A DNA stretch of 64,000 nucleotides from IMG/VR virus record IMGVR_UViG_3300045988_138661; one strand, 5' to 3'. The notes below the pieces were generated by a model. That model was not told the origin of the DNA. It searched no databases and was given only the letters and a program-made list of their open reading frames with translations. Shown here in pieces: positions 2,035 through 52,754 of this stretch. The translations under genes and the position numbers were made by a program. The DNA comes from a virus. The stretch's first letter is position 1. Every line of letters starts with the position of its first letter.

Positions 2035-2349
2035 TAAATATTCTTTAGCGTCATCGCTTAAAATAAGCAATACCGCTTGATAAGTTCTCTAAAATGCTTC
2101 TTTTTGAGCAGCTTCATCAAACTTGCCTTGTTCTTTAAGAGAATTTACATAAGTTTGATTAGTGGCAATAACACAGTTAGTAATTGTGTCAGTAGCCATT
2201 TGCACATATTTATTTAAAATATCATTGTCAGTTTTCTTTTGTAGTTCTGCACTTTTTGCTTTAATCCAAATAACTATAAAAGTAGTTAAAGCACCAAGCA
2301 TAGGAATCAAGCACACTTGAAATAATTGATTAATCAAATTTTGATCCAT
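2035..2349 (-). CDS. Small membrane protein, holin-like (N-terminal TM helix LFQVCLIPMLGALTTFIVIWI, charged C-terminus), about 104 aa with one TAG.
   Basis: The ORF-track piece 2089..2349 ends at TAG (2089-2091). The frame continues to TAA at 2037-2035. SD aggagataatattATG. Confidence 0.45.
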
Positions 2350-2383
2350 AATATTATCTCCTTTTTCTTACAATAAATTTATA

Positions 2384-3412
2384 TTAAATCCAAGCCACTG
2401 GAACAGGTGTCCAAGTGCCTGTGGTAGAAGTCCTATATTTAAAAGTACCAGTTTTAGCAGTTGTATCTATCCATATTAAAGGCGCGGTGCCAGAAGCAGG
2501 CTATGTAGATCCAATATAAATAGAATAATCAGTAGTAGTTCCAACCGTAGGAGGAGTAGCATTATCAACATATTTTTTAGTTGCTAAATCCATATCTGCT
2601 GTAGGAATATAAGTATTATCCATGGTAATTTTACCATTTGCAGTCATTGTATTAGATTTATTTTTATATACTGCTTGTGTTACATCATCAGGAACAGTTG
2701 CTAATTTATCATCAATTTGTTTAATAGCACTACTTACTTTATTATTAATAGTTATTTCAGCATTATCTACTGCTTCCTAAATCTAAGCAACTTTTTCGTC
2801 TACATTAATTGCGGCGGCTCCTTCAATACCCATAACCGCAAGATAATCATCAGCTTCACTGGTCCAACCATTTAAAGTAATAACTTTTCCTTCAATGGTA
2901 TAATGATCTGTTTCTTTTAACATAATACCATTGTAATATAAAGTTAAAGCACTGCTATCATCAAAATCAAAAGGAATGGTAAATGTATTCTAATTTGCTT
3001 TTGCGGTAAATACATATTTATTTATAGGTTTACTTATTATATTAGTAGGACAAGTAACATTATGCTCAATTCCATTAATATTTATTGTACCAATTTTACT
3101 TCCAGTATCATCAATATTTTCATAAGATACTTCTGACAATTCCGCTAAATTACGTCCGTTTTCATCATAAGTAGCATAATCCGCGTGATCAGTATATAAA
3201 TTTAATCTTTTATCTTTAGTATCAATATAAAATTTATGAGTGTCTTCTGTAAAATAAGCATATCCTTCTGTAATAGGAGTACTGTCTGCTGTTGTAAATA
3301 AAGTTTTTCCTGAATCTAAGGCAGGAAAAGGAATTTTACCATTAACTACTTCAGCATTATCATAGGAAACTAAATTATTTGAGTTTCCTTTTAAAATTTT
3401 AAATAGAGCCAT
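2384..3412 (-). CDS. Putative tail fibre or receptor-binding protein, about 342 aa, with TAG.
   Basis: ORF 2990..3412 with SD ggagttattgaagatcgATG. Same frame continues through CTA triplets to TAA at 2386-2384. Confidence 0.4.
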
Positions 3413-3482
3413 CGATCTTCAATAACTCCTTTCTATAAATTAATGGTATAGAATTAATTAATAATTCTATACCATTTAGTTT

Positions 3483-4107
3483 ATTTATTCAAGAACAATC
3501 CAATAAACATCCAACCCATTACCACCAACAAATCCTTCTAAACGAGCTAAACGCTCCCAAATTTGTTGAACTACTTGGCTATCATCAATTACATAATAAT
3601 CTTCTTCTTTTACAATAGAATCTAAATTGAGCTTAGAATAAATCTAAAGACTTGCTGGCAATGTATTTAAATTATATAATAAATTATTAGAATCTTTTTC
3701 TATTTTGTAAAAAGTTATCATATAATTTAAATTACCAGATTTTTTAGTAGCACTATAATTTAAAACCCAAGGAAAAATAATTTTATCTTTATGAGTTAAA
3801 GTATCATAATATGGAACTGGATAAATACGTTTTTCATTGTCAGCATTAATATACTAAATAATACACATCATATTAGTTAAATCCATAGTGTCAAAATATC
3901 TATCTACTTCAAAATAAATAATTTCAGCAGCATGGTCGCCTTCAACTGTAATATAATTATTTTCATTACTAATAGTCCTTGAATTTAAATTTATCTAAAC
4001 TAATTTTTCATCTTCTGGAGCAGGAAAAGCTGGATATTTTACTGGAAAATTTTCATCTTGTATTTGATGTAAAACGCTATAATAATCAGTTGGATTAGTT
4101 ATCATTT
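3483..4107 (-). CDS. Hypothetical protein, about 208 aa, paralogous to the N-terminal domain of gene 4111..5794 (shared AEIIYFEVDRYFD / AETIYFQIDRYFD block). Candidate fibre chaperone or assembly protein.
   Basis: Hand translation from ATG about 4107 (ggtaaaataaATG) through three TAG to a stop near 3483. Not in the ORF track because of the TAG. Confidence 0.45.
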
Positions 4108-4110
4108 ATT

Positions 4111-5794
4111 TTACCTCTTATATCGTAAGTACTCCTGGCTTTGATTTTCTTTCACCTTTTTTAATAATAACAGCCACTTGAGTAATATTTTCATTTATTT
4201 CTATTGCGTTATTAGTCCCAGAAGTAGTTATTTGAGTAACACCTTCAGCATTTTTCCACTAATATTCATAAATTCCATTTCCTAACTCACTAGTATTAGT
4301 GATATTAACAATATATTTTCCATTTTCAGTTTTTACTTCACCAGTAGGCACTAAATTGATAGGATCAAAATAATTAGTAAAATTAATTGGACCATAATCT
4401 ATATTATCTTTATTTTTATACCCATGAACTGTTAAAGTATAATTATCTTCTTGAGTTAAAGTTACAGTTTTTTCATTGCTAAATTCAGACCCATTCTTTG
4501 TCCAAAGATAAGTACATTGAACTCCTTCATCATTCTACCCAATAGCAGTAATTGTATTAGAAGAGCCATAATAACATCCATTATCAGGAGAGGGATCAAG
4601 AATAATTTTAAAATCTTCACTAATACCTTCCACAACAACACTTAATCCTACCCATTTAACTTCTCTACTTACTTGATTTGCGGTCGTACCATAGGCAGTT
4701 ACACTATAACTTCCGCACCCGTCGACTTCACAATATTGGACTTTTAAATAAAGATCATTCTTTTTAGCAACATAATTCTCAAGATTAATATCGCTACTAC
4801 TATTAATATAAGTATCTCCATTTTTAGTGAAATAAGTCAATTTTTCGTTATAGGCCATATCTCCGCTAAAAATACTATTATCATCAACAATTTTTTTGTA
4901 TTCATAGCCAATACCATTTTTTAATTCAGTATTAGTTCCTCTATAATTACAAATCCATTTATATTCAATAGTAGTATTGTCTGGATTGTTTAAAGTATCA
5001 TTATAAGCTAAAGCATATAATTTATCACCAGTTAAATAAACTGATTTATTATTTAAAATACTTGTCAAGAAAGCCACATTATCAGGGACTCCAAAGCCCG
5101 CAGATTTCTTTGAATCAATTAAACTTTCTAAATACCCAGTTAAATAATCAACAGGTTGCGCGGTAATTAAGTCTTCATCAATGTCTAAAGTTTTATTAAT
5201 AACCATTTGCGCGGGTAATGTATTAAATACATACATTAAATTATTATTATCTTTTGGATTTTTTTTGAAGAAAATAATAGAAAACTATAAAGTACCAGGT
5301 TCACTAGTTACTTCATCACTAATTTGCCAACCAAAAATTAATTTTCCAGCAGTACCAATATCGGGGCAAATAGCTTCAGAATAACCTTGAATTTGATCGT
5401 TCAAATAATACTAAATATAAATTTTAATATCATCAGCTGCTAAATCTTGTAAATCAAAATATCTATCAATTTGGAAATAAATTGTTTCTGCCAAATGATC
5501 ATTTTCAACAGTAAGTAGTTGAGTTTTTCCAAATTCTTTAGTTAATTCAATTTGACGAGTATCAGCATTTATATTTATAATAGGCTCATCTAAGGGTATG
5601 CGAAGAACAGATGGATCTAGTTTCTTCATTTGAACAATACCAGTGATGTTACTATAATAGTCTTCAATAGATTTTATTTCAACGATTTTTCCATTAACGT
5701 TTTTTATTTTATTATCTTTAGCTAAAGTATTAATTTTCTTTTGAAGTTCTTCCCACTTAGCTTGTTCGATAACACTATCATTTTTAACTATCAA
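4111..5794 (-). CDS. Structural, tail-fibre-like protein of about 560 aa. N-terminal domain paralogous to 3483..4107, C-terminal domain Asn/Gly/Tyr-rich. TTG start.
   Basis: ORFs 5411..5794 and 4535..5236 are in the same frame. The gap 5237-5410 was checked codon by codon: only TAG, no TAA or TGA. TTG start 9 nt after SD aaaggaagag, with a TAA immediately upstream. Confidence 0.45.
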
Positions 5795-5804
5795 ATCTAT
5801 CTCT

Positions 5805-5845
5805 TCCTTTCTAAAAAAATTAGGTTAAATAGTTTTTTTCCTATT
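5805..5845. terminator. Hairpin plus T-run terminator (aggttaaatag ttttttt cctatttaacct aatttttttt).
   Basis: Perfect inverted repeat flanked by T or A runs on both strands. Confidence 0.5.
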
Positions 5846-5889
5846 TAACCTAATTTTTTTTATATTTAAATCAATGTATTCTGGCCTAT

Positions 5890-6090
5890 TTAAACCTCAT
5901 ACCATTCTTTTAATTCATTTTCAGGAACTAAAGGAGAGATGGAAAAGAATTCTTTTCCATCTCTTGTTAATTTTTTATTGTAATCTGCTATTAATCTATA
6001 TAAAGTAGTTGCAGGAATTCCTGTTAATTGAATAGAAGATTCAATAATACCATTAGAACCCATATATCTATAAACAATTTCTTTTTCCAT
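5890..6090 (-). CDS. Hypothetical protein, 66 aa, TAG-free.
   Basis: ORF track. SD gaggacaaattATG. Real TAA stop at 5892-5890. Confidence 0.55.
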   Translation of the reverse strand: MEKEIVYRYMGSNGIIESSIQLTGIPATTLYRLIADYNKKLTRDGKEFFSISPLVPENELKEWYEV

Positions 6091-6099
6091 AATTTGTCC

Positions 6100-9000
6100 T
6101 CACTTTACAATAGGCTCTTCTTCAAAATTCGCTCTATTGGATATCATTGCTTCATAAATATTATGTAAAGTATTTTTAACACTTTCACCATAACTAGCCA
6201 CATAATAATATCTAAAACGACCTGTGTATCCATTAGCAACAGTAGGCATACCAGTTTGACGAGGAGTAAAAATATTACCAGAACTATCTGCTGTAATTTG
6301 TTTAATTGGGTGTTTATTAGTACCAATCTATACTTGGATAGCACCAGTATAACCTTTAAACTAATTACCAGACATATTTAAAATTGTCTGGCCAGAAAAT
6401 GCATTTATATCAAAATTAAGAATACCGTCTTTGCATCCCTCTATAATTAAATTATAAGGAGAATAAGAACCCATCTTACTTTGATAAAATGCTTGAGCTC
6501 CAAAAGTCAAACCTTCAGTAGAAGAAGAATAAGGAATTATGTTATTACGGCTTAAAGGACATTGATAAAATGCTTTAGTGCCAATTTTCTTTAAACAATC
6601 ACTAAATTGGAAATATTCTAATCCGCTATCTAAAATAAAGGCATAATCATCTATTACAGAAATTTTATTACTATCTTTTGGAGCAAAGAATATAGCAGTA
6701 ATATTAGGATTTACCTGAATACCAACTGCTGCTGAGGGGTTAACTTGACTATATTTAATTCTTGTAATTGGCTAACCATTATAAGTTGTAGGTAAAGTAA
6801 TTTTGCCTTTTAAATTCTTAGCTAAGTCAGTCATTGCAAATGATAATTCTCCATCAGAGTTTATAATATCATAATATTTATGAGTAGCATCATTAGTTAA
6901 AATATTATCATAAACACTAATCGGCTCTCCAACAGCATAAAATTCGCGGTCAGCATAGGCTAGTTGTTTAGTTAAATCAATTTTAACTCCATCCTTATCC
7001 GCCCATCCCGTCTATCTCCAAGTCCACTCTAATGGGTCTTCGCCTTCTGGTAAATCAGATACTTCTGTATTATTAAAATAATAGAATTCTTTTGGAACAG
7101 TAATTTTTTCACCATAATTAAATACTTTCTTTACAGTTGAATCATTAATAATGCGGTCACCATTAACGAAAGTGATCGTATAAGATTTACGCTCAAATCT
7201 CGCTTTAAAAATATAATCCATTTTATTAGGTTGTAAAGACAAAGAATTCCAATCGCTTTTTAAAACAACGTCTTCTTCATTTACATTTTTTCCAACAGTA
7301 ATTACTAATTCTCCCGTATCATCTTCCCAACCTTTAAAATCATAAGTTGGCATTTTTTCTTGTAAGCTACCAAAAGAAATATAAGTTTCACTAGAAGAAT
7401 TTGTTGGATCATCAAAGAATTCACTGCTAGATAAGGGTAATTTCTAAGTTTTTAGAACCTCCTAAATTAACACTCCATCAATATCTTCTTTTTCTAAAAT
7501 AAACTTGGCAGAACATTCTTGTTTAACGTTTTCTACAAAAATTATTAAATCAGGGTATTTATTCTATAACTCAGTCTAGATAATAGATTCATCAATCTAA
7601 TTATTATTTTTTATATACATAACACCAGATATTTCTGGCTTATTAGTATTAAGACCCCTATAATTATTATAAATATCAATTAATAAATTATAATCAGTTA
7701 TTATACTATGATTATTATTGTCTCCATTTATTGTATCTAAATAATAAATCTGATTATTTTTAATATCAGATTTTGTTATTTTATTAACCTAATCTTTTGG
7801 AATAGCTACCAACTAAAAATGTCCATTATCTCTATAATAAGATTTTCTTTCTGGATCAAGAGTTGTTTTAGTGTCAGTCAGAAGTCTATATGGACTCCAC
7901 TAAACATTATTTAAATTAATAATACAATTAGATAAATCTAATTTACTATTTTTACTAGCTGAAATATATTTGCGTAATAATTTATAACTATTATAGCCTA
8001 AATTGCCACCTCGAATATCAAAAGTTCTTATCTCAGTTTTTTCTTTTCCTTCTTCAGCATCGGTAAGACCTTGAATATATAAACCACGATTTTCATCTAA
8101 AATCTCAAGTTTTCCAGTAATCGGATTTTTTTTAGGATATACATAATTAGTTATTAATTTCGTTAATAAATTAGCTTCTATTAAACTTAAATAATTTGTT
8201 CGATTAGTTAAATATAAAGTATTTAAAGCTACTCCAGGAGCGAAATTAACTCTCGGAATATTAGATTTAGTATTTCTAAAGTTTTCAAGTTTTTCACTTT
8301 TAGTTAAATCTAATGCACCCTAGTCTTTTTTAAAGTTAATATTACAAAGATTCATTTCTTTAAGTAAAGGCATTCCACCTTTTGGGAAGGACCAGTCATT
8401 TACATCATTATTAAAATATTCATTACCGCTTTCATCTTTTCCATCATATCCTAATAATAAATCAGTTAAACGCTCCATTTTTCCTTCAGCTGCAAACTCT
8501 TGGAAATATAATTTACTTAAATCACCAAGGGATTTCATTTGATCCATTCCATAAATATAATATAATTGTTCTTTATAATTACCGCTACTCATAATTCCTT
8601 TTTTAATATCAGGAGCTACATATTTAACCGGTTCTAAACCATTATATTTTTTTGAAGGAAAATTTTCTCCATCTGTACCAATAGTAACATAGGCATTACG
8701 CGCGGGTTCCATGTTGATCCAATATTCACCATCAAACATATGATTTTTTTCTTCGAATTCAGCACCATTTTTCCAATACTGAGAATTTGTAATTAATCCT
8801 TCCATATTTTGAGTGTTAGTACCTTCAATCCATTTATCTGATGTATTCTTAGGATTGTTCGCGGAAATACGACTTCTAATATAGCTTCCTCCACCGTTTC
8901 TGGCATAAGTGCCAACAGTCAACCAAGAGTCAATGTAATTAAGACGATTAGCTAAAAATTGCGCGCGATAAAGATTTCTATCTCCTTGCAAAGCATAAAA

Positions 9001-12000
9001 ATATTTATCATCTTCAACCTCATATGAACCTCCATCAGTTAAACGGCCAAATACTGGCATATTTTCAGCTTTAGAATTTGTTGGAATAATATATTTAAAT
9101 TCTTCATCTAAGCTTAAAGCAATAATTGGTCGATCTCCTAAAGCGGCATAACTATCAAGAAATACTGATGGATCAGTACGATACCATTTATCTACAATAT
9201 CGCTCTTTTTAGCCCCTGCTCCTGCGCCTTTAGTAAAAATTTTATTTACTCTTGAATCATTTGGGCTATAAGAATTATTTTGAGTTCCCATTAATTGCTT
9301 ATATTTATCTACCATTTTATTCTTAAAGAAAGTATAAAAATTATTCCAAAGAACACTATCATTAGTCGAAAAACTTCCTTCTTCAGTAGCATCAATATAA
9401 TATTCAAAAGATGGGATACCGGTATTATTAATACCTAGTTGAGTATCAATATCATAAAAGATAGGATACCAAATATAATGCTATTTACCGGTAGATTTTT
9501 GAACATTGCCTTTTTGCGGACCCCAAGAAGCAAACATTGCATTTTTTCCACGAGAATCATAACATTCAAAAATTTCCGTCATCAAAAGATAAGAAGCCAA
9601 ATATTCGATATCAAAGAAATTACTTAATTCATTTTTAAATTTAGCTTGACGGTATTCTTTACTATCTTTAGTATAAGTAATAGAATCATAAGTTACTGGT
9701 TTAGGCAATCTCCATCTTTCATCAATAAGATCTTCATTTTTAACAAAAGAATAATAATCTAAAGAAGAATTAAATTTATCAGAACTTAATACATAAATTT
9801 CATTTTTACTATCAACTAAAAGGTAGTAAGTATTTGTTTTATATACTTTACTCAAATCATTTGTAAGTTTTATACTTATATAATTTACTTTATTATTTTC
9901 ATTAATCTATTTATAATACCTTAATTCAGGATTATAATCTTCAGAAGCTAATTTATAAATAATTTTTCCATCTTTATTAACCCCATCTTCGATGTAATAT
10001 TCATTAGGGGTGTATATAGCTGCTGCAAGTCCTTCAACTTTAGTATAAGTACCCATAGATTGAAGCTCTAATTTCTATCCATCCTCAAACTCAATCTTAC
10101 CACAATCTAAACAGGTACTCCATACCCAACTAACTGCATCTTCCCAGTTAGACATTAAAGCTAAGAGCAATTCTTGTTTACTTGTATTATTACCAACATT
10201 AAATTCTATTTCTTCTCCATCTGGATTTTTTATAATCCATTTAATAGATTTTACACCAGTAATTTCATCAATTATTTCTTTTTTAATAAGCCTATCAGGA
10301 GCTACATTTTTTAATTCTTCTCCAACAATCTTAGTCTATGTTCCATCTGGGTCATCCCAGTCTTTTAAATTAAATAACTATTCAGCAATTAAATCATCAT
10401 TTGGATTATATCTTGGTTCAAAAGAATCAACAACTTTTGGAGCGCCTTTAACTAATTCAGGATTATCTCCATCTGGAGGAATTACCATATTAGGATTCCT
10501 AAATGATAATTTATAACGATTCCAAGGGTCGCGGAAAGAACAATATGTTCTTGAATTATTCTAAAATTCCCAACATTCAGCAATATCTCTTACTTTTGGA
10601 GTTCCATTAATTTGATTCTATAAAACCTTTTTATCAGGCTTAAATCCATAGCATTCATCTGACCCTTTGTCTAATAGCATATTATATTTACCAATAAAAA
10701 TACAATTACTGCTATTTTCTTTAGAATATGTATTATCATCATTAGACATATAATGGAAAGCTAAAACTGGGAATCCTTTCACTGAAGTACGATAATCTTC
10801 TAAATTTCCATATAAATTATAATTATCAAAAGAATCTTTATAATCTTCTACGGGATGTTTAGAATAAATTTCATTAACTAAATTAGCAAACCCTCTATTA
10901 TAATCTCCTGAAGATTCCATAAAATCTATTTTTAAAGTAAACTTAGTAGTACCAACTGTTTTATTATCCATATAAAACCATTCTAAATAACAAGGATGTT
11001 TAGTTATATCTTCATTATACTAATCTCCTGCTTTTTTATAAGCCTCAGCAAATGGGCCTCTATTTAAAAGCATTGATTTTTTACATTTAGCCTTATAATT
11101 ACGACGAGGATAAAATTGTGAAGAAGTGCCTTGGACTTGAAAAGTACATCCATTAAGAACAGTTATAAAACTAGGGCAATGATGTATATAATAATTCTAT
11201 ACAGCAGTATATTTTATTGTTTCTATCCCAGTCTCTTTATTTTTTTCAATTACAGGTTTCCATCCTTCTTTTATAGCAACTTTTTCTAATTCGCCACTAT
11301 TATAAGCAGCATCTAAAGCCGTATTAACAAATTCTAAAGTTCCTTCCTAACTTCCTTTTGCTTTAGAATAAGGTAATCTATTATCTGTGTTGTTTTTATT
11401 ATTTTTAGTAGTTCTTAAAATAATATAAGGCATTAAAGGATCAGTAGGATGATTATCATTATACTTTTTCATTTTAGTATAAGAGAATACATCATCTTTT
11501 AATACCGTGTTATTCTCGTAAAGGTCTTTTTGATCCCATTGTTTTATACTTCTTTTATCAAAAGCATAATTTTGGACTATTTCAGGAATAGTTAAATCTG
11601 TATCATAAACTCTAATACTATAAATATCAATATCACAAGTATTAGACATAAATTTAATGGAATCAGAATCAATATTCCAAACATCACTATTACAACGTAC
11701 AACACTAGTTAAAACGCCATTCATAAAAATTTCTAATAATTTAGAATTTCCGCCTTCTATATCGCTTTTCTTTTTAGTATAAACAAATGAAAGATTTAGC
11801 ATTTCATTTTCAATAAAATCAACTGAAACTGTTTCTTGAGCGCCATTAGCCGTAAATACAGCATCCTATGGACTAAAATAAATACCAGGAGAAACGGAAC
11901 TTCCTAATTTACCATACACACAAACTAAATTCTTTAAATTAAAATCTTGTTCTATTTTATTATACTCTAAATCATCATAACTATAATTAGTTGTCGGTAA

Positions 12001-13716
12001 ATATTCTTTAATTAAAAACTCATCATAATTAAGATATTTATTTTGAGCTTTAAATTTATCCCAAGCATCATCATCTTCCCAATTATCTTTACTTACTTTA
12101 TATCTAGTATATTTAGTTATAACTTTAGCATAATTTTGAGGATTTTTTATTTTAAATTGAACCTCAATAGTAGCAGATGATGATCCATCTTTAAAAGCCA
12201 TTTTCCCAATTGGGATAGACACCTCGGCACCATTACTTACTCGCAAACAAGTCGTATTGTTTTCATCGAAAATCCAGCCATTATTATACCAATTAAAATT
12301 TTTAAATTCTACGTATTTATTATTATTAATTAAATAAGTTTCACGACCTAATTTTCCCTCTGAGTTAGAACGACCAGTAGCTATAAAATTAACTTTTAAA
12401 TTATCTTTTTTTGCTAATTTCATATCTCTTAAAGGATCAATTAAAATTGTAAAATTAAAATTACGAGAATAAGAATAAGGATCAGTACCAACTTTAATAG
12501 TATAATAAGAACTATCATCTACAGTTAAATTAGTAATTTCCCAATATTGCCATTCTCTAACTTGTGAACTATCTAATTCTCTAGTTCCTACTTGGACGCC
12601 ATTCTTATAAAGAGTTATAAAAGCTCCATTATTATTTGGGTCTAATACTTTAAAAGGAATTCTTATTGTCTCATAAGTATAATATTCTGTCTTAAAATCT
12701 TGCACCCAAATTAAAGGCATTTTATTGCCTGGTTCTTGAATAACAATTTCCTTTTGAATAAAATCTGTTCCCGCGCCTTTTTTAGAATTATTCATTAAAT
12801 ATAACTTTGCTTTTATTATATGCTCACCATGAGTAAAATAATTTTTTAAAGTAGAAACTTTGTCAATCCCTAATATATTTGTATCAGGAGTAATAACAAA
12901 AGAATCTTCAGAAGAAGAATCAGTATCACTATAAGTTCTATCTAAAACTAAATAGTCATCAAAATAAACTTCAACAGATCTAGCGATATCTTCAGACATT
13001 AACCAGCTAACAGATATTTGTCCGTTATCAATTGGACTATCATTACTAAAACTACTTTCTTTCCAACTGAAAGAAAGATGGTGCTTATTAATATTAATAG
13101 TGTCAGAGTTTTTCTAAAATCTATTATTTTCTTCATCAGGATTATAATAAATGCTAAAATTAATCTCACTAGAACATGAATTTCTTAAAATATTAGTTAA
13201 ATCAATTTCTTGTGGAACATTATGTTCATAAGTAGTAGGAGGAGAAGTATAATATACTTCTTTTTCTGTAGCACTTTTAATTTCACTTATAGTTATAATT
13301 CCTTGCACAGAAGAAGATTGCGGAATACCACCAACAGTTCTACATTTAACCAAAACTTTTACTTTAACATTTTCTTCATTTAAGATATCAACAGGGCTGT
13401 CAGATGGAATTCTTGTTAAAGAAACAGTTCCTAAAACTTTTTGTTCAGAGTCTCCTTCTCCGCCACCGCCCGCCCCGGCGACAGTTAATTTTTCACATCT
13501 CGCACATTCTTCGCGGTTTTCATTTAAAGCAAAACCTAAAATTCGATAAAAACATCCATCTAAATTTAAAATTAAATCATCTATATGACAATTTGTTATA
13601 GATAATTTTGATAAAAGAATTAAATAAGCCACTGGGTTTTCATCCGCATCATATTCAATTTCCACAGTATTATCTGTACCGTAAATTACCTGAACACCAC
13701 TAGACCCTATTGGCAT
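6100..13716 (-). CDS. Giant structural protein of about 2538 aa (tail-associated or host-recognition candidate), read through about 40 or more in-frame TAG.
   Basis: ORFs 7012..7353, 8320..9315, 9481..9855, 10618..10971, 11347..11802, 11866..12999 and 13114..13716 share one frame. Each ends in CTA on the plus strand. The gaps 7354-8319, 9316-9480, 11803-11865 and 6103-6420 were hand-checked and contain no TAA or TGA. TAA lies immediately upstream of ATG 13716; TGA at 6102-6100. Remaining gaps were not checked, so this could be two or three genes. Confidence 0.4.
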
Positions 13717-13848
13717 TTTATTTTCAGTTGCTGTATCTAAATAAACTCGGCCTGTATCTGTTGCAACATAAAAATATCCATCGCTTTGAGGATATTCTTT
13801 TATTTTTTCTTCTGGGCCCTATACAGGACGAAAACGTATTTTAGACAT
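13717..13848 (-). CDS. Small protein, 43 aa (MSKIRFRPV-TAG-GPEEKIKEYPQSDGYFYVATDTGRVYLDTATENK).
   Basis: SD aaaggagtaaattATG. TAA at 13719-13717 directly abuts the next ATG (TAAATG). Confidence 0.35.
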
Positions 13849-13871
13849 AATTTACTCCTTTCTATCCTAAA

Positions 13872-27792: not shown

Positions 27793-27836
27793 AAAAAGGG
27801 TGAAGCCTATAAGACTTCACCCTTAATTTTATTTTC
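27793..27836 (-). terminator. Intrinsic terminator after the tape measure gene (agggtgaag cctataag acttcaccct plus T-run).
   Basis: 10-bp stem followed by 5 or more T on the minus strand. Confidence 0.6.
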
Positions 27837-36083: not shown

Positions 36084-36209
36084 CCATAGAAATCTCCTTT
36101 CTCTCCAAGTTTTATCTTTATATAAAAATAAAACGGGGATAAGAGCAATTATACTCTTATCCCCATCACTCTATTATTTTTCAAAAAATAATATTATTAA
36201 CTAATTTAA

Positions 36210-39818: not shown

Positions 39819-40399
39819 TACTCTTCAGTTCTTTTTTTAAAATCTTCTATAAATCTTTCCTCGTCATTAGGATTTGGCATAGATTTTTTATCTTCTTCAC
39901 CATGAACTGCCTGATACATAAGACACAAACCCGCATATTCATCAGTTAAAATAATTTGATTTGCTCCAAGAAATTCTAACTTACCAATACCGGTTAAATG
40001 CGTTTTATCTATCATGCTATCAATTTCTGCGGCAATACGATAAGGGCGCAATTGGTAATCTTTTAAATGCCATTGATCAAAATGACAAATAATATCGAAT
40101 TCAATAATATTGTCTCTAAACTCAGGATTTCCACTTTGTGTAAAATTATCAAAATTAATAATTAAATAATTTAATACACTTCCATCAACATAAAGCTTAG
40201 GAATTAATTTAATATTTTTATTAAATAATTGAATCATTTGTTCATCATTTAGATCTGGCTTATCAATAGCATCTTTTGTTGTATAATACAATAATCGCTT
40301 TAATCTCTCATTTTTACAGAGATGTCTTACAATAATTTCTAAATCTTTTTCAACAGAAAGAAAACTTGATTTAGGTAAATTTACACCATTAATTTTCAT
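39818..40399 (-). CDS. Hypothetical structural protein, 193 aa, TAG-free.
   Basis: ORF track. SD ggagtaaaaggtgttATG. TAA stop. Confidence 0.55.
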   Translation of the reverse strand: MKINGVNLPKSSFLSVEKDLEIIVRHLCKNERLKRLLYYTTKDAIDKPDLNDEQMIQLFNKNIKLIPKLYVDGSVLNYLIINFDNFTQSGNPEFRDNIIEFDIICHFDQWHLKDYQLRPYRIAAEIDSMIDKTHLTGIGKLEFLGANQIILTDEYAGLCLMYQAVHGEEDKKSMPNPNDEERFIEDFKKRTEE

Positions 40400-42333: not shown

Positions 42334-42352
42334 TTAATCGCCCTCCTATAAA

Positions 42353-42946
42353 TTATTTCTTGGAGGAAGTTTCCTCGGTTTTATTAATTACTTTATATCC
42401 AGAACCGCTTGTGCGACGACCTTGAGTAGTAGGTTCTTCTCTTACTACACGGCGCTTAGCTGCTGGTTCTTTCTCTACAATAGTATCTTCTTCTTTACTA
42501 GCGATATCATTAGCAATAGCTTTATCAACATCAAACCCAGTTTTTTCCTTCAAAGCTCTACGCTTATTAATATCAGTAATAGGAAGGCTAACAGATAAAT
42601 TCTTGATTAAGTCAATAATTCCAATAGGAGCAAAATCAAGAGCATCTAAGAAAGCATCTAATGAGCCATTAAGAATTAAATCAGCAACTTGTTGCTCTGA
42701 CATATTATATTCAGGTTCAGTATGAACATTAAGAGTATGAGTTACTTCTGGCTCTAAAATTTGTAAAAAATTAGCAATCAATTCGCGGCCGCCTGCCTGA
42801 TAAGTTAACTTCTCTAACTCACCAAATGGAATACGTTTAGTTTCACCGGGCGCAAATTCACGACGCAAATTAGTATCAGGAATAGTATAAACAACTACGC
42901 TAGTGCTTCTATTTTTTACATTATAAATATCTTCATTATTAATCAT
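42353..42946 (-). CDS. Hypothetical head or connector protein, 197 aa, TAG-free.
   Basis: ORF track. SD aaaaggagaaattgaATG. TAA stop. Confidence 0.55.
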   Translation of the reverse strand: MINNEDIYNVKNRSTSVVVYTIPDTNLRREFAPGETKRIPFGELEKLTYQAGGRELIANFLQILEPEVTHTLNVHTEPEYNMSEQQVADLILNGSLDAFLDALDFAPIGIIDLIKNLSVSLPITDINKRRALKEKTGFDVDKAIANDIASKEEDTIVEKEPAAKRRVVREEPTTQGRRTSGSGYKVINKTEETSSKK

Positions 42947-42974
42947 TATTCAATTTCTCCTTTTACTCATAAAA

Positions 42975-43020: not shown

Positions 43021-43032
43021 ATTTATATTAAA

Positions 43033-44139
43033 TTAGACATTGCCATCAAGACGGCCATCATAAGTGACAACCTTACCGGTGACTCCATCATAATTCCAAG
43101 TATACATCTGACCGAGAAGTGAAGTATCAACATAGGCACAGATGTTATTAGCAAGCATACAAACTACGCCAACCTTCTTGTAAACCTGAATCTCACGAGA
43201 ACGATCATAATTGTTAAACTCGTCAACAATAGTGCCGCCTTCGAAAGCAATCTTTACAGGCTTACCATCAGCGCCCGTAGGAATAACCCAAGCATAACCA
43301 GGATCAATAACCTTACGAGTATTGGTTTCATCTTCAAAGCCCTGCTCAAGAATAATAACCTTAGTGCCCTTGTAAGTAGCAAGACGACCATTATTCCAAA
43401 GCTCGTTCTTCATAGCTTCAGTATATCTCCAAGCCTCATGAGGAATCATCTTAACAGCGAACTCATAAGTGCAATAAATAGTAGGAGTACCATAAGCAGA
43501 AGCAATAGTAATCAAACGATCCATAGCCGCTTCATCAAATCCGGCAGCCGCAACGCGGTTAGCAGGAGGAAGTTGATTGATAGAAGATCTAAGAGCAGCA
43601 GCAACTTCTTTATAAATAAGTTCATCCATACCATCCATGATGATCTTGGTTACTTCACCAAAATCAACACGACCATCAAGGAACTCTTCGAAGCCAATCT
43701 GAGCAGCTCCGCCGATAGCGCTAGTACGTACCTCGAAGGCTTCATTCTCTTTAGGTCCGAGCTTGAAGACTTCATAAATACCAGCAAGACCAACGCGAGT
43801 TACAAACTGTTTAGCACGAGCACGATTATTAAGAGGACGACGGAAGACAGGCTTATCACCCTGAGCGAAAGTCTTAACCTCAGCAAACTGATCATATTGC
43901 TGAATAACTTTCTTAGGAAGAACCTCATCAAGAGTCTCCTCAATCATAGAGAAAATAAGATTCTTATTTTCACGATAAAGAGCGTAAGTACCAGCCAACT
44001 CATTCATTTCATTACGAAGAGTTTCATTTAAGGCTTCATAACTAAGATTTTTTCCCTCATAACTATAAGCAACAGGAGCAGAAGGATCAGCCTTAGCAAC
44101 TTGCTTCATAAGAGCAACTAAATTATTTTTATCTAACAT
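43033..44139 (-). CDS. Putative major capsid protein, 368 aa, TAG-free and with higher GC than neighbours.
   Basis: Intact ORF. SD aaaggagaaaaggataATG. Sits downstream of scaffold and decoration-like genes and before a strong terminator. Confidence 0.55.
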   Translation of the reverse strand: MLDKNNLVALMKQVAKADPSAPVAYSYEGKNLSYEALNETLRNEMNELAGTYALYRENKNLIFSMIEETLDEVLPKKVIQQYDQFAEVKTFAQGDKPVFRRPLNNRARAKQFVTRVGLAGIYEVFKLGPKENEAFEVRTSAIGGAAQIGFEEFLDGRVDFGEVTKIIMDGMDELIYKEVAAALRSSINQLPPANRVAAAGFDEAAMDRLITIASAYGTPTIYCTYEFAVKMIPHEAWRYTEAMKNELWNNGRLATYKGTKVIILEQGFEDETNTRKVIDPGYAWVIPTGADGKPVKIAFEGGTIVDEFNNYDRSREIQVYKKVGVVCMLANNICAYVDTSLLGQMYTWNYDGVTGKVVTYDGRLDGNV

Positions 44140-44156
44140 TATCCTTTTCTCCTTTC

Positions 44157-45074
44157 TTACTTAATACGCATTACCTTGACGCCCTTTTGACCATCAGGCA
44201 TAGTATAAACTTTAACAACCTGCCAGATCATTGAATCGTCACCAGTTTTGCTAAGAATACCCTTTGTAGCAGCAGAAGGAGAAAGTTTATCTCCAACAGC
44301 AAGAGTCTCTTCATTAATCATATTAGTAGTGTAAAGATCACCAATCATGGTCTTAAATACACGAGGAACCATAGAAGTGCCAGATTCCATGAACTTCTCA
44401 TGATAGATACCTAACTTATGATATGGATCATTGGTCCAATTTGCTTCATATATATCAGGAACATCAGTAAGAAGTTTATCATAGTAATACTTTACAGGAA
44501 CATTAGCAACCTGATGATTACTATCAAGAGTATATTCATTACCATCATAAGTAAACTTGCCAGTTTCATCAACATCATAAACACGGCCAGCAATAGTAAC
44601 AGTCTTTAAACCCTGATCAGCGGAAACGGTCTGATTGATCAATTTATAAGTTTGACCCTTATCATCAACGCCGTTCCAGAAACGACCACCATATTCAACC
44701 TCGGTATGCTCCCAATCATAAGGGCTATAAACACGAGCCTGATAGTCATCCTTAAGCATAGCAAATTCGCAATCCCACTGCTTACTGCCATCAGAATGAT
44801 CACGATAAAGCTTAATCTCGTTATAAACGAGCATCCATTCACCTTCGCCAGTAAAGTTGACTTCGCCGATACCATTACCATTAGCAGCATAGTCATACTT
44901 TACAAACTGACCGTTTTCAAGAATCTCAATGTCTTTATTGGCGGGAAGTTGAGCATAGATTTGAGCATTTCTTTGTGCGGAAAGGTGATTAGGCTCGACC
45001 TGACCGTAACCAAACTCAACATACTTTGCCTGAGACTTAATAGGAAGATTCTTATTCAAAAAGTCTTTAAACAT
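44157..45074 (-). CDS. Capsid-associated protein, possibly decoration, 305 aa, TAG-free.
   Basis: Intact ORF. SD taaggaggacatactaaATG. Confidence 0.45.
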   Translation of the reverse strand: MFKDFLNKNLPIKSQAKYVEFGYGQVEPNHLSAQRNAQIYAQLPANKDIEILENGQFVKYDYAANGNGIGEVNFTGEGEWMLVYNEIKLYRDHSDGSKQWDCEFAMLKDDYQARVYSPYDWEHTEVEYGGRFWNGVDDKGQTYKLINQTVSADQGLKTVTIAGRVYDVDETGKFTYDGNEYTLDSNHQVANVPVKYYYDKLLTDVPDIYEANWTNDPYHKLGIYHEKFMESGTSMVPRVFKTMIGDLYTTNMINEETLAVGDKLSPSAATKGILSKTGDDSMIWQVVKVYTMPDGQKGVKVMRIK

Positions 45075-45091
45075 TTAGTATGTCCTCCTTA

Positions 45092-46138: not shown

Positions 46139-46168
46139 AATACAAAGTTTAGAAATAATTGCCTTATT

Positions 46169-46681: not shown

Positions 46682-46690
46682 AAATCCTCC

Positions 46691-48334
46691 TTATTTCATT
46701 GCTTCTTTATTTTGAATAGTTTTTTCACTTTTCTAATCATCAGGTTTTTCCGGACGTCCTGCTTCGCCATTAGAAACTTTAGCAGTTCCAGAACCTGAGC
46801 TTCCTGAATTATTTTGAGTTTTATTATTAGATGATGAACCTTTTAAACCCAAAATATCTTCACTACCCATAGTAGAACTCATAAGAGGAGGAATCATAAT
46901 TTCACTTAAATGTAAAATCTCATTTTCAAAATGAGCTGCATTAAGAATAAAACTCTATGAATGTCCAAGAGCAATCTAAGACAATAGTTTTGATTGTCCC
47001 ATTTGCGCTTGTTCTTTATACATTTTAGAAAGTGTTTGATAATTATTCTGAGTAGTTTCTAATAAATAAAATCTAAAATTATATTTCTTATTACTACTCT
47101 TTTTTTCAATAATTCTATTAAAGAATATATTAAACTATAAAATTAAACTTCTTATTGTAGATTCATCATTTAATACTGATTTTTCTAAAGCCATATTGCC
47201 ATCAGTATTAAACAAATTCTATGAAATACCTAATGAATTATAAACACTACGTTCAACTTTAGCTAAATCATCTGTCGTTGTAGTAGTATTTTTATCAGAC
47301 ATATCAATAGAATCTACATCAGTAAATGTAGTTAAAACATCTACTCCAATAGCCCTCTATAACATCTAAACGGCATTATTATGGATATCTCTGGCTTCAT
47401 CAACATCAAATATCAAATCACCATTTTTATCCATTGGGAGCTTTTGGACTAAAATTTTAAGCAACTTCTACATTTGTTTCTTGCGGTCAAGATCTTGCGC
47501 TGCATCTAAATCCATAATAGTAGGAATGGAATTTACAAAAATAGGAACATCACTATTATTAATATTAAATTTAATACAATTTTCTGGCTCAAGAACATAC
47601 CAACTACCAGTATGCTAGCATCCAACCGCATCTTCTAAAGCAAGTTTTCCTTGCTTATATAAAACATAACCTTTAGCAAATTCTTCTGGGAATAATTTTA
47701 ATACTTTTAAGCGATAATTCATATCTTTAAAAGTATCAAAAAATCGCATATCAAATTCGACAACTGGGATATTATTTACACTATAACGTGTTCTACAATA
47801 TCTAACTGGCAATTCTTGTAAAATTAGATTTTTCTCTGAAGGAACTATATATCCATAATAGCATCCATTTTTAACAACTTGCAAAGCAATATCTCCACAA
47901 ATCTTTTTAATATAACTATTATCAAAATAATTCAACATTCTATAAAAATCTTTTAAAACTTTTTCTTCTTTTACATTATCATCATAAGTTTCGGCTGCAA
48001 TATACCAATCATAGCGGTATAAAAAAGCAACATAATTACAAACTCGTTGATATACACCACTTATATCATAATAAAAATTAGAAATGTATCGCAAAGTATT
48101 TAAATCTCTTTCTGCGAGTGCGCGAAGCACATCAGGTTTCGTAATAATACGATTTTGACCTGGGTATCTAATCTTACTATAATCACCAAGTTTTAAAATA
48201 GCATCATCTAAAGTTTTTGTGCCAACTTTTATTTTTCTATTGGCATAATCCGTAGCATCATTATAATTATATTCACAACGACCATTATAAATATCAAAAC
48301 CTTTAGCATGAATCTAATCATTACGATCTTGCGT
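46691..48334 (-). CDS. Putative portal protein of about 547 aa, with TAG and a TTG start.
   Basis: Position between terminase and scaffold. SD taaaggaggtggaacTTTG. Contains ORF 47615..48130 in frame (LRALAERDLNTLRYIS...). TAA at 46693-46691. Confidence 0.5.
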
Positions 48335-48353
48335 ATCCAAAGTTCCACCTCCT

Positions 48354-48710
48354 TTAATAACCTGCTAATTTCATTATATAATCATAAGAAATAAGGTTTT
48401 CGTCGGTATATGGAATCTCTATTAATCTAAAATCATGTAAAGCGCAAAAACGTCTTTTTTGATTATCATTATATTGCTACTGGTATAAACCGCGTTTTCC
48501 GCCAAATTTAGAACTGGCTTCATAATGCTATTTTCCCTAATACTCAATAATGAAATCAATTTTTCCATCATCATCAAATATAACAAAATCAAAACGAAGC
48601 GGACGCCCGCTGGGGCTTTTTAAATCTGGAAAGATATATTCCATTTTAAAAGGTAGTCCTGCTTCTTCTAAGATTTCTTCAATTTTAATTTCTCCTCTTG
48701 AAGCACGCAT
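48354..48710 (-). CDS. Small PD-(D/E)xK-type nuclease-like protein, 118 aa, with TAG (LRFDFVIFDDDGKIDFIIEY-TAG-GK-TAG-HYEAS...). Candidate free-standing homing-endonuclease-like insert.
   Basis: SD taaattaaggagggtggaaaATG directly after the terminase stop. Motif resembles the core of Vsr/DUF559-type endonucleases. Confidence 0.45.
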
Positions 48711-48722
48711 TTTCCACCCTCC

Positions 48723-50462
48723 TTAATTTAAAAAGCACCAATCAGCTGCATTAAACTTTTTACGTTTTTTCTTTTTATCTTCTTCAAGTTTTAAATAATA
48801 TAATCCATATTCAAAAGCCGAAAATTTATCTTTACGAATTCCGCGATTTGCTTGTTTTAGAATAATATTAATACCTTCATTTTCTTCGCGTAAATTCATC
48901 ATTTCTTCTTTTAATATGGAGGTTAAAGTAAATGGTTTTAAATAATCTGCCCTTTGTTCAGGAGTCATTTTTGAACCTTTTTGAGTAGCTAATAATTTTT
49001 CTTTAGCCGTTCTCTCATCTATTAAGAATTTTACCTTACCCGCTTGTAATTGAGTCTGAGCATTAGCATGACATTCAGTATTTATTGGAGCATTTGCTTT
49101 AATAACATACATAGCATCAAATTGAGTATTTGGTGTGCGATATTTTTTATAATATCCATCATCATCATTCTCAACGCCAAAATCAGGTAAAAATTCACCA
49201 TCTTCATCATTTTGAGATTTTACCATATAATCTAAAAGCCCAATACCTAAACCATTACCGTCTATAACTAAAGTTTTAGCTTTATATTTATAAAATAATT
49301 TCTTTAATTTAATAGCCTAATCTTCAAAATGATCATCTGACATAGTATACATATTTACTAATGATTTAATAGCTGGACCTTGAGCTTGTGGTGTTACTTT
49401 AAATACACAAACTACTGAATCGCATCCCTTACGGCCTACATCTACAGAAAGCACATAATAAGCTTGCGCGCCCGCACGTCCAGAAGCTTCATACTCAGGC
49501 TATAATAATTTTCTATTTCTATCAAAATGCTCTCCATTAAAGAAAGCATCTTCAACAGTTCCTGACCACTTAGATTCATATTCACGCTCAAATGAGGCCT
49601 CGTTATAAGTTCCTTCATTCTTTTGGTCAGTAATAAATGTCTTACTTTGTAATCCTACCGCAACAGGAGTTCGCCATGTTCCGCCTAATACCATACAACG
49701 ATCGGGCTAAGTTACCATACGAACTAAGAAACCAATAAGTCTATCATAAGGGAACGTGCCCTTATAACCAGCAGTAGTAATATAGATTTGTGATTTATTT
49801 AATGGCTCTTGCTCATTGGTAGTGCCATCTTTAGCTCTACGGGAAATTGCCATAACAGGAATAATAACTTCACGAAGGATGGCATCATCAATACCAACAC
49901 ACTCTTCCATTAGTCCACCATGACGACGCTGACCACGAGTGCTTTCACGAGCTGCGAGGTTATCTAAAACTGAACCATTTTTAAATACATATCTAACTTT
50001 ATCTTTTCCTTCAAGAGTTTTTCCTCGGCTCCAATCAATTTCTCGATTAAAACTTGGAATAAGTTCACATATTTCTTGAACTTTATCATGAAGAATACTA
50101 GCACCTTGTTCTTTACCTCCAGAAGTAACGAATAGATGCGCACCAGGATACAAAATACATCTAATCATTAATGCCATAACAGACAAAAATGATTTAGAAT
50201 AAGCACGAGGAAAAACCGCGTAAACATACTAATAACGCATAACAGAACGGAGAAATACTCTCTAATAAAAATAAAAATTAAATTCTCCATCTTTTATTTC
50301 AGTGCGTCTTCCTCGCACCATAAAATCTACAAATAAATCAGGATATTCTCTCCAAAAAGCAACGTATTTTCGGATGATGGGCATTACCGCCTCTACTCGC
50401 TCCGGTGATAAACCTATTTTTCTACGGCTATCACTTAACTACAGTAAATCTTGTAATGCCAT
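48723..50462 (-). CDS. terL: Terminase large subunit of about 579 aa, with TAG.
   Basis: Three ORF pieces (48723..49226, 49500..49694, 49707..50186) share one frame. Upstream extension was hand-translated to ATG 50462. Terminase-like segments (LFVTSGGKEQGAS; nuclease region ASFEREYESKW). TAA stop at 48725-48723. Confidence 0.65.
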
Positions 50463-51649
50463 TATTTATTCAAACCCTATAAGAACTCATTATCTTGCGC
50501 GGACTCCTATTCTTTAAATTCCTCAAAGTCCGCGTAATCACTATCTTTAATAGTTTTTTCAAGTTCTTCAATACTTAAATCAGCATCATCAACGATATCA
50601 CTTTCCACGTTCTTTGCTTTCTCTTCATCTTCTTTAGCATTTTCGCGTAAAGCCTTTTCTACCATTGTGCTAATATTAGTTTCATCTTCAATAAGAGTGC
50701 GAGTATAACGTTGCATATCTTGAATAGTTAAATCCACTTTATCATGTGGCTATTCAACATAATATCTTTCAATATATCCTTCTTTTTCACACAATTCAAT
50801 TAATTCACCAATTGAATCAACAAATTCACCTGATTCTGCTTTATTTTGAGCAGCGGTAAATTTACCAGACTTCATTAAGCTATCGTATACTTTGCTCATC
50901 TTTTGGAAACCTTCAATATCACCAATATCGATCAATTGATTTGCCTTTAAAGATGTCTTACATATTAATTTTAGCGTATCTTTGTGTCCGGCACCTTGAA
51001 TATCATAAGAAGCCATCATTTCTTCATACAACTATTCAAGCTTAACCCATTCTTCAGGCTTATAAGTTTTGCCCCATTTAAGTCTTAAATAAGTGCGGTC
51101 TTCATCAGTTAAATCTAATTCTTGTTCCACTTCACCACTCTATTGTGCGAAATAATCTTCCGTAGGAGCATTAGGTGGTGGAGCATAAACCGGCTCTTTT
51201 AGTTCTCCTTCTGGAATAGCGATAGAACTTTTTTCAATAGCAGTTGCAATCTATTGAGCGTCATATCCTTGGCGTTTCATAGTTTGCTCTAATTTATTAT
51301 TTGCCATCTACTGTAAAAATTCTGTATCTTTCCAACGATAATCTTTAAACTATTTGAGTTTCATTTTTGACAAATAACGTCCAAGAATTGTCATACCGGT
51401 CATAGACTGCGGATCGCGCCCATATTTTTCCATTAATTTATTCCATTCGTCTGGGACATAAGGAACATCCGCTTCTTGTAAAATCCATAAATAAGTATCT
51501 GGATTCCAATTATCGACGTGCATTGTCATACATTTTTTGCACACAGGGAATTTACCATCATTAGGATATTTTTCTAAATTATTAGATGAATAAAATTCCG
51601 TGCCATTCATTGTGCGGTTACATTTTTCGCAATAATATGTTTCAGCCAT
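50462..51649 (-). CDS. Protein with an N-terminal zinc ribbon (CEKC...CKKC) and an acidic C-terminus, 395 aa, with 6 TAG. Possible terminase small subunit or DNA-binding protein.
   Basis: ORFs 51350..51649, 50750..51031 and 50507..50737 share one frame. All intervening codons were hand-checked (TAG only). TAA at 50464-50462 overlaps the terminase ATG (TAATG). SD aaggagaatatcttatttATG. Confidence 0.45.
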
Positions 51650-51698
51650 AAATAAGATATTCTCCTTTCAATTATTTATTATAAACAAAAGGACAATA

Positions 51699-52754
51699 TT
51701 AAGATTTTTTGGCCTTAGAATTTCGACAACTTTTACAAATACTATAAAAGCCATCTTTACTTGTTTTATTTTTACTAAAATATTTATTGTGAGCTAATTT
51801 TATTTTGCCACAACGACTACATTTTTTATATTTACCTTTTTCAACATTTAAATAATAATTATCTAAGTATTCATCTTCCGCAGTCGAAGCAATTAATTTT
51901 GGAATTTTATTACGCCATAAACTTGAAATATATTCAAGGCTGTGCTTAATACCAAATTCCATTTGTATTTTCTCTTGAATGTCAATATTTTGTAAACCAT
52001 CAATTTTATATTCAACGATTCTATCATAAAGAGGATAATTAGCTAAAGCTTTATCACAAAGTTTATCAAAATCCTCCATTAAATACCATAAATCTTTATC
52101 ATATTCGCCCCAACTATCTTGCTTTAATCGGGAATAATTACATAAAATCGCAGAACATATCTCAGGTCTTAATAAACTAATTCCATCAGGAATGGGAAAA
52201 CCATCATCATCAAAAATAAATGTTTCATCATCTAATGGAATATAAGACTTTGATCTGGTTAATTTTGTAGGCACTATTGGACGACGATAAGCATTTTTTA
52301 TAACATACTAATCTTTACGCATTTCAATAAGAGCCTTTTTAATAACAAAAGCATCTTTACCTTCTGTTACTTTTAATTTAGCCTCCCAAACATTAATGGC
52401 TTCTCTTAACTAATTTAAACTTGGTATCTCTTCTAAATCTTTTTTTGTAATTGTAATATGTGGTTGAAATATTGTATTTCTATTATCTGTAATTAAATTA
52501 TAAATTCCATCTTCGCCATTTTCGAGTTGGGAAACAAGACCTTCAAAAGAAGTCTCACGTTTATTAACTGTAGCCATACGATTATCAGTTAATAATTTTT
52601 TCTCCTTTTTTTCTTGTTTCTCCATACAAAGAACCAAATAGTCTGCTAAAATTTCTAAATACTTTTCAGGCGGATCTGGATTATCAGCCAAAATTTGTTC
52701 GACTAATTGATTTCTTTCTTCTGGAGTTTGTAAAGAATAATCAAGTTTTATCAT
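51699..52754 (-). CDS. Hypothetical protein, 351 aa, with a C-terminal zinc ribbon (CSRCGK...CKSCRNSK) and 2 TAG. First gene of the leftward arm.
   Basis: ORFs 52410..52754 and 51699..52274 share one frame; the gap was hand-checked. SD ggaggtaaaaaATG. TAA at 51701-51699. Confidence 0.45.

Follow-up and report, generated by a model that had tools for sequence, protein, structure and literature searches.

How is the left-hand part of a 64,000-nt stretch of the virus record IMGVR_UViG_3300045988_138661 (the window in what follows) translated, when its minus-strand open reading frames (ORFs) come out as fragments under the standard code (code 11)? The initial annotation read TAG as a sense codon throughout this leftward arm, from 2035 to 52754, and the fragments proved to be pieces of the same genes, split by code 11. 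With TAG taken as sense, ~32 genes tile the minus strand from 227 to 52754 (the recoded, or late, arm) with short gaps or overlaps. They comprise ~16.7k codons, including ~250 in-frame TAG (15 per 1000 codons) and no internal TAA or TGA, and nearly all of them are preceded by Shine-Dalgarno (SD) sites of the AGGAGG type. The 33 called genes stop at TAA (29 genes) or TGA (4 genes), in line with the earlier statement that genes end at these two codons. On the minus strand between 2035 and 52754, ORFs of at least 100 codons total 9,063 codons under code 11; the total is 17,056 when TAG is read as sense, as compared with 9,782 and 11,981 in controls in which TGA or TAA, respectively, is read through. 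Expressed as minus-strand ORFs of at least 100 aa, the total rises from 10,207 to 19,673 aa, a near doubling of the ORF content, and the longest open frame extends from 555 to 2,760 codons; in 200 shuffles of the region, no TAA/TGA-free run exceeded 195 codons. The hand counts of the initial annotation were reproduced: 8 TAG, no TAA and no TGA in the 322 codons of 7354-8319, and 8, 6 and 1 TAG in 50462-51649, 39093-39818 and 5237-5410. In these ranges TAA appears in the coding frame only as the terminal stop, and the other two frames contain plentiful TAA and TGA. Alignments with standard-code homologues pass through all 49 testable TAG sites, the identity being 71% before the first TAG and 64.5% after it. 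Protein breaks at TAG and internal TAA or TGA, the two observations that the initial annotation had set against its own reading, were both absent. The relatives behave alike, since over ~4,400 homology-supported codons each they show essentially no in-frame TAA or TGA and 2-17 TAG per 1000: as in code 15 phages, only TAG interrupts conserved genes while TAA and TGA still stop them. Because TAG-rich, TAA/TGA-free genes with SD sites tile the strand and homologue alignments cross the TAG sites, TAG is translated as a sense codon in the late genes, and only TAA and TGA terminate.

Fragmented gene calls under code 11 would also be produced by TAG codons that are true stops, either in a decaying (pseudogenised) phage or through errors of assembly or base calling, C→T at CAG for example. 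The TAG codons were aligned with a set of 80 IMG/VR loci related through the terminase large subunit (TerL, 67-99% identity; 220 TerL relatives are present in IMG/VR), supplemented with phage phAss-1 and one fecal contig. In relatives at least 95% identical, 98% of the codons opposite a TAG of the window are TAG themselves, so the sites are shared. Moreover, only one stop codon of the three is affected, and dozens of independent assemblies all lack in-frame TAA and TGA; protein-level conservation continues past the TAGs; 57 CAG codons remain in the same genes; and the lineage possesses a cognate tRNA(CUA), described below. At the level of sequence comparison, true stops or artefacts are refuted by the codon alignments, the TAA/TGA counts in relatives and the downstream conservation, and their probability is vanishingly small.

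The initial annotation held that the amino acid could not be decided, which was too cautious. Among relatives 80-95% identical to the window (n=543), the codons opposite TAG are TAG (63%), CAA (28%), CAG (8%) or another codon (0.2%), that is, 542 of the 543 are TAG, CAA or CAG. In relatives at 60-80% identity, the distribution (CAA 36%, TAG 14%, CAG 13%, GAA 10%, AAA 6%) mirrors that found opposite the window's own CAA and CAG codons (CAA 41%, CAG 22%, GAA 6%, TAG 5%). A second set was made of 21 standard-code loci without in-frame TAG, in which glutamine represents 62% of the residues aligned to TAG. It is the prevailing residue at 30 of 49 TAG sites (61%), as compared with 78 of 134 true CAA/CAG sites (58%), and its log-likelihood at the TAG sites exceeds that of the next residue, Glu, by >1,200 nats. 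Since TAG interchanges with CAA and CAG and aligns with Gln in standard-code relatives at the rate of true Gln codons, these alignments unambiguously identify TAG as a Gln codon in the late genes. The recoded arm contains 246 TAG (34% of its Gln sites), 416 CAA and 57 CAG, and the use of TAG is uneven between genes. Reassignment to another residue (Trp, Tyr, Leu, Ser, Glu, Lys or pyrrolysine) could be proposed on the grounds that ARAGORN labels tRNAs with a CUA anticodon 'Pyl' by default, that one of the suppressor alleles of the lineage has a long variable arm as in class II tRNAs, and that Trp, Ile or Tyr isotypes have been predicted for some phage tRNA-Sup genes (PMC10879173). The residues aligned to TAG nevertheless track the substitution profile of Gln; in the 21 standard-code loci Trp, Tyr, Cys and His never stand opposite TAG, and Leu and Ser each account for <2%. 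Among close relatives, 99.8% of the non-identical cases are TAG exchanged with CAA or CAG. A residue other than Gln is thus extremely improbable.

What decodes TAG was sought in the window and in its relatives. No suppressor tRNA, and no canonical tRNA of any kind, lies within the 64 kb, and near-identical IMG/VR contigs contain no tRNA in the 8.8 kb to the left of the window or in the 10 kb to its right. A DNA search pattern modelled on the conserved anticodon arm found in the phAss-1 suppressors (GGTCTCTAAAACC...GTTCGAWTC) matched contigs of the window's own lineage (TerL 98-99% identical, ~95% nucleotide identity). These contigs carry a tRNA array that includes a tRNA(CUA) of 90 nt, in which the variable arm is long, U1·U72 is a mismatch and position 73 is G; in near-identical genomes the array is located ~43-45 kb past the right end of the window. 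Sampling was repeated independently of the tRNA, by fetching 15 further contigs through the ORF adjoining the suppressor, and in every one of the 15 the same slot is occupied by a tRNA(CUA) with a putative ribozyme behind it. Altogether, tRNA(CUA) is found in 19 of the 19 related contigs in which this slot was read, four of them with a TerL 98-99% identical. Two suppressor alleles occupy the slot, one of 90 nt with the long variable arm and one of 73 nt, and both are devoid of the encoded CCA found in neighbouring tRNAs (relatives L209, positions 7965-8109, L213, L241, L295 and L320-L334). Directly 3' of each lies a predicted hepatitis delta virus (HDV)-like ribozyme, the G1 of which is the first nucleotide after the tRNA. 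The unit reads tRNA(CUA) and then GGUGCUA...CCUCCUCGCGGUAGCACU, in the gene order tRNA-Val, suppressor, ORF, tRNA-Tyr. Inspection and a motif scan identify the ribozyme elements P1 (GGUGCUA/UAGCACU), L3 (CCUCCUCGCGG), J4/2 (CUAA) and P2 (AAACAAA/UUUGUUU). Regarding charging, both alleles have an unpaired 1-72, G73, G2-C71 and U35, features that resemble GlnRS identity elements as known from the E. coli tRNA-Gln and from classic amber suppressors inserting Gln; the long variable arm of the 90-nt allele is atypical for tRNA-Gln. The tRNA(CUA)-ribozyme unit itself is absent from the window. Positions 53303-59566 are 100% identical to the ENA ERZ28595197 scaffold_23 (190,948 bp), which reaches 44.5 kb past the right end and in which the window corresponds, reversed, to about 44,494-108,493. 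The window amounts to about one third of the phage genome.

As judged from sequence, the window comprises the late arm of a large phage of siphovirus type together with the start of a divergently transcribed early arm. The identity of the late arm follows from PHROG matches to sigma-like, TerL, homing endonuclease, portal, virion structural and tape measure families. Its features, and those of the early arm, are as follows.

227-475 and 488-934, minus strand: genes with in-frame TAG.
1178-1894, plus strand: response-regulator receiver-domain protein at the end of the late arm, on the opposite strand; one TAG, at codon 17.
227-52754, minus strand: recoded late arm (structural, packaging, lysis), ~32 genes, TAG as a Gln codon.
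6100-13848, minus strand: late protein of 2582 aa, ending in TGA and probably a component of the tail or a fibre; 26 TAG.
13967-15628, minus strand: TAG-free late gene of 553 aa; 17 Gln codons, all CAA (P=0.0008).
27829-36087, minus strand: tail length tape measure protein, 2752 aa (phrog_4211, E=2e-62); 80 TAG, 42% of its Gln sites.
38085-39068, minus strand: TAG-free virion structural protein (phrog_2729), a possible tail tube by its position upstream of the tape measure.
39093-39818, minus strand: 241-aa gene with 6 TAG, the start of which overlaps the upstream stop (TAATG).
43033-44139, minus strand: TAG-free, higher-GC, CAG-rich gene (phrog_4088), candidate major capsid protein by position only.
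44157-45074, minus strand: TAG-free late gene; 14 Gln codons, 0 TAG.
46691-48340, minus strand: portal protein (phrog_2739, E=1e-81); 10 TAG.
48354-48710, minus strand: homing (HNH-type) endonuclease between portal and TerL (phrog_9084, E=1e-26); 3 TAG.
48723-50384, minus strand: terminase large subunit (phrog_2 and others); 5 TAG.
50462-51649, minus strand: conserved protein (phrog_3314); 8 TAG.
51699-52754, minus strand: sigma-factor-like gene that heads the late arm (phrog_5767, E=9e-55); TAG at codons 115 and 149.
52860-64000, plus strand: code-neutral early arm, ~24 small SD-preceded ORFs, GC 0.42.
56111-56222, plus strand: promoter-driven tRNA-like RNA of 112 nt (Rfam tRNA, 37 bits), promoter at 56070-56098.

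The initial annotation had already recognized the giant tape measure gene, a call supported by the PHROG tape measure families, and its merged length of 2751 aa is only to be corrected to 2752. TAG is indeed sense between 2035 and 52754, although the recoding is wider than this range: two minus-strand genes (227-475 and 488-934) and one on the plus strand (1178-1894) have in-frame TAG as well, and the position of the last on the opposite strand shows that recoding is not strand-bound. The product of 1178-1894 resembles, by eye, a protein with a LytTR-type output domain, which Pfam did not detect. The homing endonuclease with its three in-frame TAGs is a mobile element that has adopted the code of the phage. 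The word "throughout" holds for most late genes and was overstated for six of them, all on the minus strand (13967-15628, 38085-39068, 39818-40399, 42353-42946, 43033-44139 and 44157-45074), which together have 0 TAG in 63 Gln codons against an expected TAG share of ~34% in each. Some of the six have a higher GC content, with CAG as the preferred Gln codon. Among the six are the proteins most conserved with phAss-1, in which the homologues are likewise intact under code 11. We suspect that these TAG-free genes encode the most abundant or most highly expressed virion proteins, as candidates only. For the candidate capsid protein (43033-44139), Pfam and PDB sequence searches returned no hit; a single-sequence AlphaFold model had a predicted local distance difference test score (pLDDT) of 40 and was unusable for a structure-based identification, and a major capsid identity is not claimed. 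The product of 38085-39068 returned only a weak PDB match (E=0.1).

The two arms differ in composition and in code usage. The window has 32% GC overall, with ~0.29 and a strongly negative GC skew over ~0.2-52.75 kb, and ~0.42 over 52.8-64 kb. Of the 2,253 codons in the early arm, 51 are CAA or CAG and none is TAG (Fisher P=2e-9 relative to the late arm); none of its 24 stops is TAG either. Off-frame, TAG is present 36 times, so this arm does not lack the trinucleotide as such. The window therefore has, like other code 15 phages, a subset of early genes readable under the standard code of the host. Promoter-like sites are also concentrated in the early arm (60 observed vs 25±5 expected), among them ~26 near-consensus sigma-70 promoters with an extended -10 element, 14 of which are perfect TTGACA-N16/17-TATAAT matches, mostly with the TG extension; in the late arm such sites are at chance level, with no perfect match. 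The early arm is laid out as a string of cassettes, each comprising a promoter, an SD site and a short ORF, often with a terminator, and terminators are many. Among relatives it is a mosaic of present and absent cassettes, while the late arm is collinear with ~96% identity. Immediately upstream of the sigma-like gene, a perfect TTGACA-17-TATAAT promoter points leftward (52807-52779, minus strand). This arrangement suggests that the sigma-like gene would be transcribed by the host RNA polymerase and would yield a full-length regulator only once suppression starts; promoter and in-frame TAGs may together form a translational timer for late transcription.

These observations are accommodated by a mechanism in which a phage-encoded amber-suppressor tRNA (anticodon CUA, unpaired 1-72, G73), predicted from the near-identical genomes, would decode TAG, its 3' end abutting a putative minimal HDV-like ('theta') self-cleaving ribozyme in the tRNA array outside the window. 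In alternatively coded gut phages, recoding concerns the late genes, the early ones remain readable under the standard code, and a gate on late expression has been proposed (Borges et al., bioRxiv 10.1101/2021.08.26.457843). Following this model, the early genes would be expressed under the host's standard code, because they are free of TAG and have strong host-type promoters. As the suppressor accumulates, the TAG-containing genes would be translated in full length, among them the sigma-like regulator, the packaging, tail and lysis genes, and NrdD and NrdG in relatives, so that recoding would gate late functions at the level of translation. We consider it highly probable that the window derives from a ~190-kb tailed human-gut phage of a Bacillota-type host that uses code 15, encodes its own suppressor and has a code-neutral early arm.

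Several points weigh against this reading. The window lacks a suppressor tRNA, as stated above, and the suppressor-ribozyme unit is attributed to this exact genome by way of its relatives. The ribozyme fold is predicted, in relatives only, and scores 26 bits (E=0.006) with the Rfam model RF02682, below the gathering score of 44. The absence of TAG from the early arm may equally reflect its composition (GC 0.42, CAG-rich) together with exchange with standard-code phages, and the temporal code switch would be carried over here from the model of Borges et al. The assignment of Gln comes from sequence comparison, and the suppressor may be charged by GlnRS or by GluRS with GatCAB. It could also be that the host itself decodes TAG, through a TAG=Gln code or a suppressor of its own, with no switch driven by the phage, which would fit the lack of a suppressor in the window and the scattered metagenome-assembled genome (MAG) labels of related contigs. 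Near-identical genomes nevertheless carry their own tRNA(CUA) in 19 of 19 cases, the early genes wholly avoid TAG, which is unexpected for an ordinary Gln codon of the host, and sister lineages at ~70% TerL identity use the standard code. To our knowledge, no bacterium is known to use TAG=Gln, and decoding by the host is very unlikely.

A phage-encoded suppressor thus remains the preferred decoder, and the tRNA-like RNA at 56111-56222 was considered for this role. The acceptor, D and T arms of this RNA have the canonical form, and a consensus promoter within the early arm precedes it. The anticodon arm contains an insertion of 41-50 nt, being replaced by a ~58-nt irregular hairpin. ARAGORN, run with default, intron-permitting and relaxed settings, found no clean tRNA and returned only models with ACT or ATC anticodons and non-canonical loops; a canonical anticodon loop does not form in any reading register. 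The closest relative (GenBank CAMELE010000001.1, 97.6% identity) keeps the element with a single substitution in 112 nt, which turns a predicted G·U pair into G-C or, in another register, CUA into CCA. The element is absent from 18 recoded near relatives, and a pattern search of IMG/VR gave no match; since recoded relatives manage without it, the recoding does not depend on it. A tRNA with an intron, the mature anticodon of which would be CUA, might be imagined from the three canonical arms, the promoter of its own and the one register that places C-U-A beside the 3' half of the anticodon stem. That this is the phage's suppressor is, in our view, most improbable, as no register offers U33 together with a purine at position 37, the triplet is CCA in the equally recoded closest relative, and the 18 recoded near relatives do without the element. 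We know of no splicing system for a ~43-nt tRNA intron in bacteria or their phages. For the insert, a transfer-messenger RNA (tmRNA) was rejected (no stop-terminated tag frame; 16.8 bits vs a gathering score of 47), as was a hammerhead ribozyme (no CUGAUGA...GAAA core). That the RNA is a new, early-expressed phage mimic of tRNA, for example a decoy for host tRNA-targeting defences or for a tRNA-processing or charging enzyme, or a regulator taking part in the code switch, is an unlikely though conceivable explanation; it might equally be a broken tRNA.

The flanks of the window were read in relatives. On the left (L087, positions 1-8800), plus-strand genes contain TAG, with 4 in NrdD, 1 in NrdG, 2 in a nucleotide kinase and 3 in a RuvC-like gene, and the dUTPase contains none. 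The TAGs in the former genes indicate that recoding also reaches DNA-metabolism genes, which converge on the late arm. On the right, within the tRNA array of relatives, ARAGORN calls an 80-nt 'tRNA-SeC(tca)' with an opal-type anticodon (L213, 7726-7805, minus strand; L327, 3046-3125); the call may be a false positive, and the relatives' genes have no in-frame TGA. Several genes near the array have Mtd_N (major tropism determinant) domains (relatives L320, L322 and L335-L340), which suggests the target system of a diversity-generating retroelement in this lineage. A RefSeq protein labelled Dialister succinatiphilus (WP_444210097.1) falls in the cluster of the ORF adjoining the suppressor, making this species a possible lead, and only that, for the host. 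MAG labels were rejected as a guide to the host, since Bacteroidales, Treponema, Mollicutes, Lachnospiraceae and various Bacillota all appear among them. The closest relative CAMELE010000001.1 (163,874 bp; L300) was deposited in an 'uncultured Mollicutes' MAG, and this placement is probably a binning artefact, the contig being a phage.

The described phage nearest to the window is phAss-1, which reads TAG as Gln, carries three tRNA-Sup-CTA genes and a very long tape measure protein, and is monophyletic with Enterococcus EF1-like phages (Babkin 2023, PMC10607447). The top named tblastn matches are phAss-1 (40-52% aa identity) and the EF1-like phages (29-40%), with TerL, portal, capsid-region and tail proteins shared. 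From these protein identities, the window belongs to the phAss-1 / EF1-/PMBT10-like group of gut phages. The resemblance to TAG-reassigned gut phages pointed out in the initial annotation was thus well founded, phAss-1 being filed by NCBI in the 'Caudoviricetes code 15 clade'. The genus Phassvirus comprises phAss-1, ctckW2 and ct6IQ4, which are 80-86% identical to each other at the nucleotide level (PMC10607447). A megablast search with 14.8 kb of the late arm gave no match to any phage record in INPHARED and the TerL is only 44% identical to that of phAss-1, so the window is not a Phassvirus. Besides the homologous virion and packaging proteins and the very long tape measure gene, it shares with phAss-1 the use of TAG as Gln in virion, packaging and some DNA-metabolism genes, the TAG-free state of the same capsid-region genes, and, through its relatives, a tRNA-Sup-CTA, including the long-variable-arm form of 88-90 nt (86% identity over 73 nt). 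In contrast, the genomes of its lineage are larger (~160-197 kb, vs 133-138 kb in phAss-1), their suppressor is in another neighbourhood, not beside NrdD, and it is fused to a ribozyme, whereas a motif scan found none after the 88-nt suppressor of phAss-1.

Code 15 has been validated by proteomics in crAss-like phages (Peters et al. 2022, PMC9523058). As in these and in the phages of Borges et al., the recoding here affects late structural and lysis genes and spares the early ones, which can be read with the standard code; replication genes vary in their use of it, close relatives differ in code, and a homing endonuclease has in-frame stops. The present phage is from another lineage, with a signature of Bacillota type (strong SD sites, TTGACA/TATAAT promoters) and not of Bacteroidota. 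As a further difference, no release-factor or aminoacyl-tRNA synthetase gene was seen in the parts examined. Theta ribozymes, which are minimal HDV-like ribozymes, adjoin phage suppressor tRNAs (Kienbeck et al. 2024, PMC10879173), and ~90% of the reported hosts of phages with such theta-ribozyme-tRNA-Sup units are Bacteroidota. The unit in the relatives resembles them in that G1 of the ribozyme follows the tRNA(CUA), the tRNA has no encoded CCA and the genome uses code 15; it differs in its Bacillota-type setting, and, lying outside the window, is known here from the sequence of relatives. On a neighbour-joining tree of TerL (without support values), lineages with the standard code lie within recoded groups at three or more points, and TAG density ranges from 2.5 to 17 per 1000 codons among the recoded relatives, a pattern that agrees with the rapid code turnover of Borges et al.

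The recoding wholly matches that of code 15 phages as already described, and the window is a further member of a known group. In practice, gene callers using code 11 shred the late genes, so that code 15 has to be recognized for this phage to be annotated at all. The lineage is a well-sampled case for the evolution of recoding, with hundreds of contigs and with recoded and standard-code sisters at ~70% TerL identity. TAG takes a third of the Gln sites of the late arm, yet the early genes exclude it, as do a few late genes that are among the best conserved and are candidates for the major virion proteins. The established picture of such phages is left unchanged, and to it the window adds an example of Bacillota type whose timing circuit can be tested.

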